Assembly (NCBI GenBank): GCA_029260935.1
Contig: JAJDCJ010000005.1
Span: forward strand, 16,073-80,072
Direction: 5' to 3'
Origin: Patescibacteria group bacterium
GTDB lineage: Bacteria; Patescibacteriota; Minisyncoccia; Phycocordibacterales; Phycocordibacteraceae
DNA length: 64,000 nt
Part shown: positions 36,287 through 38,048 of the stretch, piece by piece
Layout of the letters: each line of letters begins with the position of its first letter
Position numbering within the stretch: position 1 is the stretch's first letter
Notes under the pieces: model-generated
Databases searched by the model: none
What the model was told of the DNA's origin: nothing
What the model saw: only the letters and a program-made list of their open reading frames with translations
Program-made: the position numbers and the translations under genes

Positions 36287-36355
36287 GGGATTAGTTTATC
36301 GGTAAAATAACAGTTTTCCAAACTGTGGTGAAGGGTTCGACTCCCTTATCCCGCA
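36285..36355 (+). tRNA. tRNA-Gly (anticodon TCC)
   Basis: Acceptor GCGGGAT/ATCCCGC, anticodon stem ACAGT/ACTGT with loop TTTCCAA, and T-arm AAGGG-TTCGACT-CCCTT. Confidence 0.85.
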
Positions 36356-37869
36356 CAGATTGAAACTTCTTCTGAATTGAGGACGGAAGACCGCCGCGCC
36401 GCAGGCGCGGCGGAAAGCAAATGGGCGCGCCGCTGCGCGACGAATTGGAATGGCGATGGTACCGCGAAGCGGGCGGTTTTGTCACGAACCGCATGGTTCG
36501 TTCCGATTTTTTGGACGAAGGAGGCAATTTCAGGGAAATTGTCGGATGAGGACAAAAAATCAGCTTGTTTCGTATCCAAAACCCAACTCCGCAGGGGTTC
36601 GACCCACTGGTTCTCTCCGCGTTCGCACTCTTTCTGTTTTGCTTTCAAAGTGGCGAGAGAGCGCATGGTTTTATCTTTTCTCTGGAGATAACTTTTCTTT
36701 GGTATATCCCCATCAAGATAGGTTGAGATAAGTTTCTCCATGCGCTCCTCGTCCGCTTTGATTTTGAGAGAAAGAGTGTGAACATCATTTTGCGACACTG
36801 ATTGTTCTTCCTGTTGCCATTCGTCAATTTTCGCTAACATCCAGTCGGTATAGCGGTCGCAAAGTGATAGTGTTTGAAGCCGTTCCTTGAGTTGAAAGAC
36901 GAGAATGTCCTCGCGCAAATATCCCTGTGTACACTTGCCTCTCTTTTTCGTACAGCGATAGTACCGATAAATTCCTCCATTTCCTTTGGCGAATTGTGCG
37001 GTGAACATAGAGCCACATTCCTCACAACGAAAAAGAGAGCGGAACGGAAAATCGTGATTCTTCCTGGTATTGCGAGGACATTCTCGTACTTTCAAAACTT
37101 TTTGTACGGCTTCAAACAATTGCGGAGAAACCAGTGGTTCAAAGTTTCCATCAAACCATTCACCACGATGTTTGACGAAGCCCAAGTATGCGCGATTAGT
37201 GAGAAGCCGTTTGATGGAAACTTTGGCAAGTGGCGTTCCGTTTCGAGATACCACGCCCAAATCCGCCAAAAACTGTCCCAGCGAGGTGTATGTATGCGTC
37301 CCTTTGGCGTATTCCTCAAATGCAATACGAACGATACGCGCGTTCGTGGGGTGCGGCTCGATGTTTCTGGTACGCGCATTATTCACATAGCCAAAGGGTG
37401 CGAGGTTCAACCACTCGCCACGGCGCAGTTTTTGGCGGATGCCCCGATTCACATTCTGCACCAGATTGTCTGAATAATATTTCGATTGTCCGAACGCCAC
37501 TTGCAACATAAAGAGTCCCTGCGGCGTGGGTTCAAACCAAAAGGTCGGAAAGCGCAAAGACATGATTTTCTGTGTGTCTACGGCGTATATGATACGTCCA
37601 CCATCAACGCTGTTGCGGGCGAGCCGATCAGGATGCCACGCCAAGATACCGATATTCCCTAATTCCTCGACCTTTCCCATCATTTCACCGAACACGGCTC
37701 GCCCCGGTGTCTTTGCGCTTTTCGACTCTTGAAATTCCTCAAGAATTTCAAGATTTTCTTTACGTGCAAACTCGCGTAATTCAAACAACTGCGCTTCAAT
37801 CGACATAATCTGTTTGTCGTCTTCTTCAGTCGATTTACGCGCGTATAGAAAATACTTTTGGTTTGCCAT
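36346..37869 (-). CDS. Large serine recombinase (resolvase/invertase catalytic domain + recombinase domain + zinc ribbon)
   Basis: N-terminal YARKSTEEDDKQ..SIEAQ catalytic serine motif, a central recombinase domain and CEECG..(16)..CTKKRGKC zinc-ribbon motifs. The start is taken at MANQKYFLYARKST. The C-terminal 44 codons lie inside R1a, and the stop codon overlaps the tRNA 3' end. Confidence 0.8.
   Translation of the reverse strand: MANQKYFLYARKSTEEDDKQIMSIEAQLFELREFARKENLEILEEFQESKSAKTPGRAVFGEMMGKVEELGNIGILAWHPDRLARNSVDGGRIIYAVDTQKIMSLRFPTFWFEPTPQGLFMLQVAFGQSKYYSDNLVQNVNRGIRQKLRRGEWLNLAPFGYVNNARTRNIEPHPTNARIVRIAFEEYAKGTHTYTSLGQFLADLGVVSRNGTPLAKVSIKRLLTNRAYLGFVKHRGEWFDGNFEPLVSPQLFEAVQKVLKVRECPRNTRKNHDFPFRSLFRCEECGSMFTAQFAKGNGGIYRYYRCTKKRGKCTQGYLREDILVFQLKERLQTLSLCDRYTDWMLAKIDEWQQEEQSVSQNDVHTLSLKIKADEERMEKLISTYLDGDIPKKSYLQRKDKTMRSLATLKAKQKECERGENQWVEPLRSWVLDTKQADFLSSSDNFPEIASFVQKIGTNHAVRDKTARFAVPSPFQFVAQRRAHLLSAAPAARRSSVLNSEEVSICAG
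36353..36483. repeat. R1a, left copy of a 131-bp perfect inverted repeat flanking the serine recombinase gene
   Basis: Identical to the reverse complement of 37918-38048. It starts at the last 4 nt of the tRNA (gcac) and is GC-rich with an internal hairpin ccgccgcgc/gcgcggcgg. Confidence 0.8.
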
Positions 37870-37917
37870 ACTTGCTTCAATAATAACAGAGAAGCAAGTA
37901 TGCGAATACGAAACAAG

Positions 37918-38048
37918 GACAAAACCGCCCGCTTCGCGGTACCATCGCCATTCCAATTCGTCGCGCAGCGGCGCGCCCATTTGCTTTCCGCCGCGCCTGC
38001 GGCGCGGCGGTCTTCCGTCCTCAATTCAGAAGAAGTTTCAATCTGTGC
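37918..38048. repeat. R1b, right (inverted) copy of the 131-bp repeat
   Basis: Reverse complement of 36353-36483 and abutting R2a. Confidence 0.8.

Follow-up and report, generated by a model that had tools for sequence, protein, structure and literature searches.

Inverted repeats around a large serine recombinase gene as probable attachment-site arms of a tRNA-targeting island in Patescibacteria

Large serine recombinases (LSRs) recombine short att sites through a 2-bp crossover inside a small common core. The characterised enzymes recombine only attP with attB, or attL with attR together with a directionality factor, and for the LI integrase attB and attP differ in spacing. LSRs also drive mobile elements that excise as circles (Tn4451 and Tn5397, with TnpX and TndX, respectively), and tycheposons are reportedly tRNA-targeting islands of Prochlorococcus whose modular cargo accretes at tRNA genes. 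The Hin/Gin invertases are proteins of about 190 aa with a C-terminal HTH, acting on ~26-bp inverted sites with an enhancer. Members of the IS607 family are small serine recombinases with an N-terminal MerR-like HTH, have no terminal inverted repeats and are often accompanied by tnpB.

The window analysed here, a 64-kb stretch of DNA from a member of the Patescibacteria, contains an LSR gene enclosed by inverted repeats next to a tRNA gene. We consider it reasonably probable that these repeats are the LSR's own attachment-site arms, duplicated in inverted orientation inside a 4.56-kb tRNA-targeting integrative island; the 131-bp arm would be present twice because the island has, between its recombinase gene and its cargo, one additional attP-like site that is complete and inverted.

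Compared with the large serine integrases, the island differs in its target, formed by the universal T-loop and the 3′ end of many different tRNA genes and holding only one specific half-site, and in keeping an intact inverted attP-like site after integration. Its arms are near-perfect repeats of 131 and 242 nt, against half-sites of roughly 25 bp in the known integrases, a directionality-factor gene is not conserved, and the junctions of resident elements are apparently reused as targets. To our knowledge, neither Tn4451/Tn5397 nor the tycheposons have an internal inverted att site, perfect repeats bracketing their modules or a core that changes with the final 4 nt of the tRNA.

Two further systems are similar in layout. 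Like the yeast 2-micron plasmid with its FLP/FRT system, the predicted island circle has two long identical inverted repeats, each with a recombinase target, which separate two unique segments (one encoding the recombinase) and whose flipping gives isomers; in both, the repeats far exceed the minimal site in length and undergo homogenisation. FLP, however, is a tyrosine recombinase of a eukaryotic plasmid and acts in copy-number amplification, whereas the island encodes an LSR and is seen integrated at tRNA genes. In the Hin/Gin/Cin/Pin systems and the R64 shufflon, inverted sites bound segments as they do in the island, the hin gene lies inside its invertible segment, and the chains of adjoining invertible modules at one relative of the island (locus L085) resemble multi-inversion systems. 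By contrast, the Hin-type enzymes are small invertases requiring sites of about 26 bp, Fis and an enhancer, the shufflon recombinase Rci is a tyrosine recombinase, and these systems are not self-mobile; their inversion alters a coding or promoter junction, whereas the junction context of the island is identical in both orientations. A full-text literature search, thin on subscription journals, found no published description of the architecture reported here.

Organisation of the locus at tRNA-Gly(UCC)

The first-pass annotation had described a perfect 131-bp inverted repeat, and a repeat search reproduced both its coordinates and its 100% complementarity (arms X, 36353-36483, and X′, 37918-38048, 1434 nt apart). 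A repeat of this length and perfection is far beyond chance, and no further copy of the arm end was found in the 64-kb window. The observation that the left copy begins with the final 4 nt of the tRNA also held: tRNA-Gly(UCC) occupies 36285-36356, so arm X opens with GCAC, the last 4 nt of that gene. A second pair, Y and Y′ (38044-38285 and 40671-40912, 242 nt, 98% identical), overlaps X′ by 5 nt. Together the two pairs delimit a putative island of 4.56 kb, at about 36357-40912, with three sites that have the core GCAC. The features of the locus are as follows.

36285..36356, + strand: tRNA-Gly(UCC), the presumed integration target (ARAGORN; Rfam 63 bits)
36353..36356, + strand: S1 core GCAC, where the tRNA end (last 4 nt) and the start of arm X (first 4 nt) coincide
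36353..36483, + strand: arm X, comprising the core and a P′-type arm (b), with the final 45 recombinase codons on the minus strand
36391-36413: 10-bp GC hairpin inside arm X
36484..36510, + strand (tRNA strand): terminator-like hairpin and T-run, ACGAACC..GGTTCGT TCCGATTTTTT, just inside arm X
36346..37869, - strand: LSR gene, 507 aa from the conserved Met (Pfam, homologue alignment)
37870..37917, - strand: spacer from arm X′ to the start codon, with a conserved CTTGTTTCGTAT box
37918..38048, - strand: arm X′, inverted copy of X, 100% identical
38045..38048, - strand: S2 core common to X′ and Y, GTGC on the + strand and GCAC on the - strand
38044..38285, - strand: arm Y, a P-type arm
38284..40654, - strand: cargo module, an ABC transporter operon
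38284-39351, 39315-40046 and 40043-40654, - strand: NMT1-like binding protein, permease and ATPase of that operon, respectively
40671..40912, + strand: arm Y′, inverted copy of Y, 98% identical, ending in half-site a′ and core
40908..40911, + strand: S3 core GCAC, in direct orientation relative to S1, with host sequence beyond
40923..40954, + strand: terminator-like hairpin

Judged from their sequences, S1 (tRNA joined to X) appears to be attL-like, S2 (Y joined to X, inverted) a complete attP-like site and S3 (Y′ joined to host DNA) attR-like. It follows from this three-site layout that the X arms bracket the recombinase module and the Y arms the cargo module. The 4-nt core is common to all three junctions, and the large serine integrases likewise have a short common core at every junction. 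The hallmarks of a tRNA island were found: the tRNA is intact (63 bits), GCAC is repeated directly at 36353-36356 and 40908-40911, and the cargo is variable. The direct repeat at the island ends is only 4-5 nt, as expected of a serine recombinase. In tRNA-Gly(UCC) the T-loop box GGTTCG lies 13 nt ahead of the core and makes up the B-type half-site a; in arm Y the conserved half-site a′ (reverse complement GGTTCGCGCAAAGGTTAGAATGTCA) occupies the ~27 nt past the core (38049-38075), and three hairpins come after it. Past S3 there is a terminator and then a 155-nt element, and the same succession follows tRNA-Gly(GCC) at 32012-32200. This arrangement is consistent with an insertion that precisely separated the tRNA from its native trailer, and the hairpin at 40923..40954 probably served tRNA-Gly(UCC) as its own terminator before the insertion displaced it.

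The GC-rich hairpin inside the repeat, annotated with a 9-bp stem, is present with a stem of 10 bp (CCGCCGCGCC / GGCGCGGCGG). The terminator-like hairpin at 36484..36510 is antisense to the conserved KIGTN..VR codons and is near-invariant among 23 aligned loci, and in this window the spacer at 37870..37917 has a 9-bp hairpin adjoining the ATG. The X arms have a conserved but sequence-variable hairpin together with terminator-like ends. RNAalifold gave no consensus structure for 44 X arms, as the hairpins change position among lineages, so that X may be regarded as a structured RNA only hypothetically. An Rfam search of 30000-43000 (E <= 1) returned tRNAs only and no match for X, Y or the 155-nt element.

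The recombinase ORF (36346..37980, - strand, 544 aa) contains Resolvase, Recombinase and Zn_ribbon_recom domains. The catalytic domain (PF00239, E = 1.7e-19) covers residues 44-190 of the 544-aa ORF, and PF07508 (1e-12) and PF13408 (1.3e-9) match the C-terminal part. The YARKSTEE motif is present, and S50 (among 20 homologues) and the zinc-ribbon residues C319, C322, C343 and C350 (20-sequence alignment) are invariant. In the AlphaFold2 model, built from a shallow alignment and poor overall (pLDDT 52), residues 375-453 form long helices with a pLDDT of 70-83. The same domain set, including the zinc ribbon and coiled coil, is found in the large serine integrases of phages and ICEs (A118/LI, SPbeta SprA/YokA, Bxb1 and phiC31), and the closest PDB relatives by sequence are SPbeta YokA and the A118 integrase. 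The enzyme is therefore an LSR, as the first-pass annotation had named it; one search returned 5718 homologues. A small serine invertase of the Hin/Gin type was rejected, the protein having 507 aa with LSR C-terminal domains and the arms being 131 nt long. An IS607 transposase was also rejected: the catalytic domain is N-terminal and followed by the Recombinase and Zn-ribbon domains, tnpB is absent and long inverted repeats are present.

Both ends of the ORF run into the repeats. The C-terminal tail is encoded by the left repeat, as had been proposed, with 45 codons rather than 44, and the stop codon lies inside the tRNA, on the antisense strand. Variable sites in this X-encoded tail are distributed 10/10/4 by codon position, with no wobble excess and an ORF that is always open, and a claim of protein-level selection cannot be drawn from the codon-position test. 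The 37-codon N-terminal extension through the right repeat is in frame, as annotated, and is probably not translated; 17 of 19 homologues in the 20-sequence alignment begin at the conserved Met (M38, ATG at 37869), and the extension has a pLDDT below 30 in the weak AlphaFold2 model.

Conservation, target choice and mobility in the family

Relatives were found in 557 cases among species-representative genomes, and 80 loci were read. A convergent tRNA adjoins the recombinase tail in 66 of these 80, an inverted repeat of at least 100 nt is present in 60 of the 64 testable loci, and the repeat reaches at least 4 nt into the tRNA end in all 45 loci compared (45/45). In the far arm the terminal 4 nt of the tRNA (GCAC, CCGC, TCAC or CCAC) reappear as their reverse complement, and the conserved half-site comes next. 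The Y/Y′ pair was seen in at least 19 loci, its outer end consisting of the same core followed by variable sequence. Homologues without the flanking repeat had been named beforehand as the observation that would speak against the annotation; the repeat proved to be present in the homologues. Short-read assembly may collapse near-identical arms and inflate 100% identity, so that for some database loci "perfect" may stand for an identity of about 98% or more, and the repeats are also found in chromosome-level records and very long contigs (L033, L038 and L040). Some loci have decayed arms (77-83% identity) beside an intact recombinase ORF, which argues that the presence of the enzyme alone does not enforce arm identity. 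The X repeat marks a very widespread family of mobile islands at tRNA 3′ ends in the CPR/Patescibacteria.

The 4-nt core co-varies with the end of the neighbouring tRNA, in both arms, and with the LSR clade; the LSR clades track the core and not the identity of the tRNA. The distance from the GTTCG box to the core is 13 nt in 33/33 tRNAs beside homologous elements and 19 nt in 24/27 Y arms, and a recognition box at two distances recalls the spacing difference between attB and attP of the LI integrase. The earlier suggestion of insertion 3′ of a GCAC target is in part correct: GCAC is the shared core, the target is the tRNA 3′ end and the core varies with the tRNA. In loci L071 and L073 similarity to relatives ends 7 nt or 33 nt past the core, which does not favour our main reading.

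Elements of the family have moved between hosts. In 20 metagenome contigs with near-identical arms the host flanks are unrelated in every pairwise comparison except L094 = L095. Unrelated cargo is found on related backbones and cargo differs between close relatives; it includes transporters, metabolic enzymes, surface proteins and defence genes. No conserved directionality-factor gene or other accessory gene was found in the element backbone. The arms differ by 0-3 nt within an element against a median of 9.5 nt between elements, and the two arms agree in every element at 59/68 variable columns. These data show that the arms evolve in concert and that homogenisation is ongoing. Of the two origins proposed for the identity, gene conversion or recent duplication, the former agrees with this pattern and the latter is wrong, since the family and the duplication are of the same age.

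Both orientations of the recombinase module occur. The LSR gene is flipped in L049, L058 and 2/20 metagenome contigs, giving 66 convergent versus 2 flipped among the loci and 18 versus 2 among the metagenome contigs, a ratio of about 95:5. Cargo and LSR gene are co-directional in this window and in L056; in 17 other loci they diverge. Arms with unrelated sequences meet exactly at the core in L085 and L016, where recombinase and cargo modules alternate in chains; these arrays suggest the use of targets other than attB. Miniature X/X′ hairpins lacking the LSR were found in L083 and L084. The idea of a self-inverting module is supported in so far as the arms contain inverted likely sites and both gene orientations occur among close relatives; its catalysis by the LSR, rather than by RecA, is presumed.

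Searches for other states of the island gave negative results. Neither Logan unitigs nor cross-locus comparison yielded an empty site, an excised circle or a restored attB. For the window proteins, Logan contained only short unitigs from one run, with no empty-site branch; the strain is represented in SRR15505513. When loci were compared with Ser/Glu/Val tRNA clusters, the sequences were too divergent for their flanks to be aligned. IMG/VR contained no relatives, and no circular contig was seen.

Proposed recombination and competing explanations

Based on the sequence comparisons, we propose the following life cycle within the predicted island boundaries. The LSR would read the tRNA T-loop box GGTTCG, 13 nt from the core, and its look-alike in the Y arm at 19 nt. 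Strand exchange would occur within the 4-nt core and the two cores would have to match, so that the core may decide which tRNA classes can be used. S1 and S3 are in direct orientation, and recombination between them would set free a circle that holds both modules and, inverted relative to each other, two attP-like sites. The circle could re-insert wherever a tRNA-like half-site and the same core are available, either at an empty tRNA end or at the junction of a resident element, the latter producing arrays. Recombination of inverted sites would flip the recombinase or the cargo module, and gene conversion would keep the long arms identical. Two further substrates were considered and rejected. 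Insertion of a circle with a palindromic site would account for modules bracketed by repeats but predicts direct cores, whereas the observed cores are inverted, and the Glu-type core TCAC has no palindromic dinucleotide. On paper, a folded single-stranded dumbbell undergoing serine double-strand exchange would leave hairpin-capped chromosome ends, unlike the observed structure.

Further considerations count against this scheme. The attL-like and attP-like targets and the inversion between S1 and S2 are non-canonical for an LSR, and the orientation bias of ~95:5 is contrary to equal use of both attP-like copies or to fast inversion, either of which should make both orientations common. These points are met by a one-way canonical integrase for which S2 would be an ancient inverted duplication and not a substrate, with flips and arm identity arising by host recombination and gene conversion. 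S2 could then have been kept for another role, such as autoregulation of the LSR upstream of its own gene or transcriptional insulation. The bias (66 versus 2, 18 versus 2) suits rare RecA-type flips, at 131 and 242 nt the arms have sufficient length for homologous recombination, and each arm, from the core inward, ends in a terminator-like hairpin and T-run. Moreover, phiC31 and Bxb1 do not recombine attL with attP, and decayed arms occur alongside intact LSR ORFs. We nevertheless regard a one-way integrase as unlikely, since homologous recombination cannot join unrelated X and Y arms precisely at the core as in L085 and L016, which implies site-specific targeting of attL-like or attP-like junctions. 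In addition, the variable sequence beyond S3 means that one specific half-site suffices in the target, in which case S1 should stay a substrate.

The remaining explanations have far less in their favour. The segment X-LSR-X′ (1.7 kb), which the first-pass annotation had offered as a mobile unit, might be a self-contained IS with 131-bp terminal inverted repeats that inserts 3′ of GCAC, yet a half-site and Y arm were always found past X′, with variable host sequence only after Y′, and the conserved a′ half-site, not host DNA, lies past X′ in nearly every locus. The flanking cores are inverted (GCAC ... GTGC) with no direct target duplication, and TCAC has no palindromic dinucleotide to reconcile them; nor could conservative site-specific recombination excise a segment lying between two inverted sites. 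The mobile unit is larger than first proposed, and an IS is highly improbable even though its terminal repeats are perfect, the recombinase module is the best-conserved part and miniature LSR-less X/X′ hairpins exist (L083, L084). The many homologue contigs of only 1.7-2.0 kb, which would also suit it, are explained by assemblers halting at inverted repeats, and L088 ends in mirrored a′ arms. It is very unlikely, too, that the locus is a Hin-like phase-variation switch of its neighbours or itself with incidental tRNA integration: the enzyme is a 507-aa LSR rather than one of the small invertases that have a C-terminal HTH, transcription heading inward runs into terminator-like hairpins, there is no evident promoter-gene pair to switch, and the identical arms place the same 131-242 nt beside each module in either orientation. 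The element is also plainly mobile between hosts with swappable cargo, and its core follows the tRNA end, a property that would be superfluous in a pure switch. Such a switch would account for a recombinase gene between inverted sites (as hin lies between hixL and hixR), for both orientations among close relatives and for the position of the flipped gene, downstream of the tRNA and co-directional with it. Finally, metagenome assemblers mishandle inverted repeats, many contigs end within X′ and collapse could overstate exact identity, but an assembly artefact from mis-joined strain variants or repeat collapse is hardly credible when 60/64 independent assemblies show the same architecture, some of them chromosome-level records or contigs of 0.6-0.9 Mb (among them L016 and L033 (CP060229.1), L038 (OY970382.1), L040 and L036). 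Furthermore, the arms are conserved in length and position, they and the cores co-vary from lineage to lineage, and partly decayed arms (77-95% identity) were assembled as distinct copies.

Significance for the Patescibacteria

A large part of bacterial diversity belongs to the CPR/Patescibacteria, and gene exchange among them is little understood. The size of the family, its near-identical copies in unrelated hosts and its varied cargo make it likely that the family is an important channel for gene flow among the CPR. The repeats also explain common contig breaks and the 1.7-2 kb orphan contigs in CPR metagenome assemblies. The family offers a natural experiment in the addressing of a serine integrase by a universal tRNA T-loop box and a 4-nt core, and it raises the question of what purpose an intact inverted attachment site serves inside an integrated element. 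If swapping the core retargets the LSR, the family may be of use in genome engineering.

More tentatively, the LSR may be a site-promiscuous, Cre/lox-like enzyme of a new class of modular element, with arrays of sites in alternating orientation and acting on any T-loop-like half-site with the same core. We see this as possible, with the balance somewhat against it. If it is true, X and Y modules would be inverted, exchanged, chained and co-excised in pairs, and a change of the core alone would reprogram the tRNA class that is targeted. The family would then be a major vehicle of gene flow among the CPR and a source of integrases that read the universal tRNA T-loop motif.

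Architecture of the island

The recombinase carries Resolvase, Recombinase and Zn_ribbon_recom domains. Among solved structures the serine integrases SPbeta YokA and A118 come closest, and by sequence the enzyme is assigned to the large serine recombinases (LSRs), an enzyme family already known, as is its targeting of tRNA genes. An inverted-repeat search recovered the perfect 131-nt repeat around the gene, its arms (X and X') lying 1434 nt apart with the LSR as the sole long reading frame between them. All sequence features described in the first-pass annotation are present in the window. 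The tRNA coordinates place the last four bases of tRNA-Gly(UCC), GCAC, at the opening of the left arm, which encodes the final 45 LSR codons; the stop codon lies inside the tRNA gene on the antisense strand. The internal hairpin has a stem of 10 bp, not 9 bp, and the 37-codon N-terminal extension exists as a reading frame, but the first residue of 17 of 19 aligned homologues is the conserved Met (M38, ATG at 37869).

Features of the island in the window.
36285-36356: tRNA-Gly(UCC) (ARAGORN and Rfam)
36346-37980, minus strand: LSR reading frame
36353-36483: arm X, 131 nt, 100% complementary to X'
36484-36510, plus strand: hairpin and T-run, nearly invariant, with a counterpart in 23 aligned loci
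37918-38048: arm X', 131 nt, 100% complementary to X
38044-38285: arm Y, 242 nt, 98% identical to Y', adjoining X'
40671-40912: arm Y', 242 nt, 98% identical to Y
Junction S1: tRNA-GCAC-X
Junction S2: Y-GCAC-X, in inverted orientation
Junction S3: Y'-GCAC-host

The second pair of arms, Y and Y', encloses a three-gene ABC-transporter operon. Y overlaps X' by 5 nt (TGTGC), and GCAC recurs at the outer end of Y' (40908-40911), beyond which lie a terminator-like hairpin and a 155-nt element; an identical layout of hairpin and element trails tRNA-Gly(GCC) (32012-32200). The three junctions resemble those of an integrated element (attL ... attR) plus one extra site. The X repeat would represent the P'-side arm with the core and the Y repeat the P-side arm with the core, the 4-5 nt X/Y overlap being the core itself, and S2 reads as a complete attP-like site, inverted, between recombinase and cargo.

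Elements of about 150 nt lie 3' of three tRNA genes in the window, Gly-GCC, Gly-UCC and Arg-TCG (32046-32200, 40947-41101 and, on the minus strand, 31272-31416), and in two other loci (L029, 3958-4081 and 7533-7656; L068, 1002-1089); a terminator-like hairpin precedes the two Gly copies examined. The 3' end of the element imitates the T-loop and acceptor end of the adjoining tRNA, the second copy ending in 19 nt identical to the tRNA-Gly(UCC) 3' end (41093-41111), with an additional 12-nt copy near 41178-41189. Its fold has a long closing stem (z = -2.7), and Rfam gave no match; the pseudo-tRNA end of the element is the target adjoining arm X in L029. The element could be a tRNA-linked RNA, or an integrative element in miniature or remnant form. 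A perfect 22-bp inverted repeat (36155-36176 and 36265-36286) encloses 88 nt immediately 5' of tRNA-Gly(UCC); the first 2 nt of the tRNA fall within its right arm, and it has no second copy in the window. Just upstream of this region a 42-aa ORF (35940-36068) with 39-nt tandem coding repeats (MPTEGGDM...) is followed by a strong terminator-like hairpin. Elsewhere, the palindromic motif TGTGCGAATCCCGGGATTCGCACA occurs twice, 309 nt apart (27714-27750 and 28023-28059), and a 191-nt direct repeat, 70% identical (42373-42563 and 43162-43352), lies within a 726-aa DUF1538/cytidylate-kinase-like ORF, consistent with two DUF1538 stretches.

Conservation and tRNA targeting in the LSR family

The window LSR had 5718 database matches, many of them on contigs of just 1.7-2.0 kb. 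Over most of the query the best 120 showed 67-86% identity, and their organism-named sources were nearly all Patescibacteria. A scan of one genome per species gave 557 relatives, 80 of whose loci were read. A tRNA gene (Ser, Glu, Arg, Ala, Leu, Gly, Val or Lys) adjoins the LSR tail in convergent orientation in 66; the others were flipped (n = 2), without a tRNA (n = 6) or at a contig edge (n = 6). Homologues without the flanking repeat would have told against the reading in the first-pass annotation, but the repeat is widespread: in 60 of the 64 loci having enough flank, the LSR is surrounded by inverted repeats 100 nt or more in length, with arms at least 97% identical in 44 of these. In every one of the 45 junction pairs the repeat takes in 4 nt or more of the tRNA end; these ends vary by tRNA (GCAC, CCGC, TCAC, CCAC) and the far arm carries the exact reverse complement. 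Directly past the far arm, nearly all loci share a half-site, the reverse complement of which is GGTTCGCGCAAAGGnTAnTAnnTCA. The Y/Y' pair is found in at least 19 loci (150-290 nt, mostly 99-100% identical), with a half-site of this same type and the core of that locus at the outer end, beyond which sequences are unrelated between loci.

The LSR clades track the core and not tRNA identity. The Ser clade (CCGC) adjoins any serine isoacceptor, TCAC is the core of the Glu clades, the window's own GCAC clade occurs at Arg, Gly and Leu tRNAs, and LSRs 91-97% identical are found at different tRNAs with a common core. In all 33 tRNAs the distance between core and T-loop box (GTTCG) is 13 nt, and a look-alike GTTCG lies 19 nt from the core in 24 of 27 Y arms. 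In serine integrases, the position of the zinc-ribbon-domain motif differs between attB and attP half-sites by about half a helical turn, which the constant 6-nt offset (13 versus 19 nt) would fit. Across the loci compared there was no conservation on the host side of S3, and the target seems to require the tRNA half-site and core alone. The unoccupied tRNA-Gly(GCC) of the window (31940-32011) has the GCAC end and the same T-loop spacing and could offer the resident element, just 4.3 kb away, a second target.

An exact-pattern metagenome scan (tRNA-Ser T-loop, CCGC, outer 17 nt of X and inner X end) picked out 20 contigs whose arms and LSR ends are near-identical. Over the 1.5 kb preceding the tRNA, they matched in a single pairwise comparison (L094 with L095), which indicates the same element in many hosts. 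Related elements have Y, X', LSR, X and the distal Y' in common, with unrelated DNA between the Y arms. Among the cargo are GmrSD, an EcoRI-type methylase, AAA_15/AbiEii-type ATPases, GrpB, SSF and ABC transporters, a surface protein of beta-helix/PKD type, an aromatic amino-acid lyase and a fusion of GTP cyclohydrolase II with a methyltransferase. Viral contigs yielded no relatives.

Homogenisation, inversion and arrays

In 16 Ser-lineage elements, X and X' of one element are 0-3 nt apart, arms of different elements differ by a median of 9.5 nt (maximum 50 nt), and both arms agree in every element at 59 of 68 variable columns. The inner X boundary is conserved family-wide, between the LSR codons for VR and DK, which together with the arm agreement indicates that the duplication is old and the arms are continually homogenised. 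Decayed arms (77-95% identity) occur in a minority of loci, most with an intact LSR ORF.

The LSR module is flipped in L049 and L058, its start adjoining the tRNA and the two co-directional, and a flipped LSR occurs in 2 of the 20 metagenome contigs; by eye, the L058 arm is close to that of the unflipped L037. Cargo and LSR diverge in 17 of 19 loci and are co-directional in the window and L056. The presence of LSR and cargo in both orientations indicates that both modules invert over short evolutionary times, with one orientation strongly predominating. Two loci with recombinases 94-98% identical to that of L070 have truncated or rearranged S2 sites (about 5790-5831) that fit no simple model: similarity to L070 ends 7 nt past the core in L071, which has no a' half-site (the conserved one at the core end of the Y arms), and 33 nt past it in L073.

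The closest homologue (P0001, 86% identical) is located in chains of abutting perfect repeat pairs. In locus L085 the order is X1-LSR1-X1', Y1-cassette-Y1', X2-LSR2-X2' and more cassettes. In L016, from the chromosome record CP060229.1, S3 runs straight into a further X arm and a truncated LSR 3' end. Read one way, all such junctions have a GGTTCG-type arm, the core and an X-type arm, and arms of unrelated sequence, from two different LSR types, meet exactly at a common CAC. As unrelated arms are joined at a 3-4 nt core, homologous recombination cannot be the cause; the junctions would imply that incoming elements targeted attL-like or attP-like junctions of resident elements. Such reuse is non-canonical for serine integrases and would follow naturally if the target needs one tRNA-like half-site only; it would also make LSR-catalysed S1/S2 inversion chemically plausible. 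Assemblies of five related JGI samples have 9.2 kb of array in common (L083 and L085, 99.96% identity) and diverge beyond particular junctions.

Array cargo cassettes also meet at a second junction type, GGCGCGGCGGAATT-CCCCCC-(TTGAA or ACA)-CCCCCC-TTCCGCCGCGCC (L085, 6810-6850, 8480-8520, 11351-11400 and 13100-13140; L083, 9222-9262). These alternate forward and reverse, so that 54-78 nt inverted repeats bracket each cassette, every one of which starts with a 67-69 aa XRE-type HTH gene; synteny of the two arrays breaks exactly within one such junction. A miniature of about 100 nt, two degenerate X ends inverted without a recombinase (L083, 1-110 and 9460-9590; L084, 6895-7030), sits where L085 has its first LSR; in L083 it also connects the array to tRNA-Leu(TAA) via the core CACC.

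Proposed mechanism and alternatives

The repeats are very probably the att-site arms of a tRNA-targeting island driven as an integrative element by the LSR. Integration would join a Y-X site to a tRNA 3' end of matching core, and recombination of S1 with S3 would give a circle with both modules and two inverted Y-X sites, the topology of the 2-micron plasmid. Accretion would result from re-insertion, whether at resident junctions or at tRNA ends still empty, inverted sites could recombine to flip the modules, and gene conversion, perhaps stimulated by core breaks, would maintain arm identity. That inversion and junction reuse are catalysed by the LSR is about as likely as not.

A canonical integrase flanked by passive repeats is a less likely but quite plausible account. 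A Hin-like switch is contradicted, among other things, by cores that match the tRNA end, and an insertion sequence bearing 131-bp terminal repeats by the half-site that nearly all loci have past the far arm. An assembly artefact is likewise contradicted: collapse could mask one or two differences per arm and cannot produce the concerted pattern. A full-text literature search, with most subscription journals outside its reach, found no description of a retained inverted attachment site, of perfect 131- and 242-nt repeats bracketing recombinase and cargo, of a 4-nt core tracking the tRNA end at all junctions, or of arrays of alternating modules.

Both arms, read from the core inward, end in terminator-like hairpins. 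Perfect hairpins occur in most of 44 arms at a distance of 36-64 nt from the core, with 30 distinct stems and a loop usually of GAA or GCA, and a nearly invariant hairpin with T6 follows just inside X on the tRNA strand. In the window it lies on the strand facing the codons KIGTN..VR of the recombinase; these bases seem to have a double role, as conserved codons and as an antisense terminator that stops tRNA read-through. With these terminators, a read-through RNA would be roughly 150 nt, antisense to the LSR tail.

The roles that S2 might have are much less certain than LSR-catalysed inversion and reuse. This internal site could insulate from the tRNA promoter or, lying directly upstream of the LSR, serve autoregulation; it could also link cargo to recombinase, alternating sites letting only module pairs excise.
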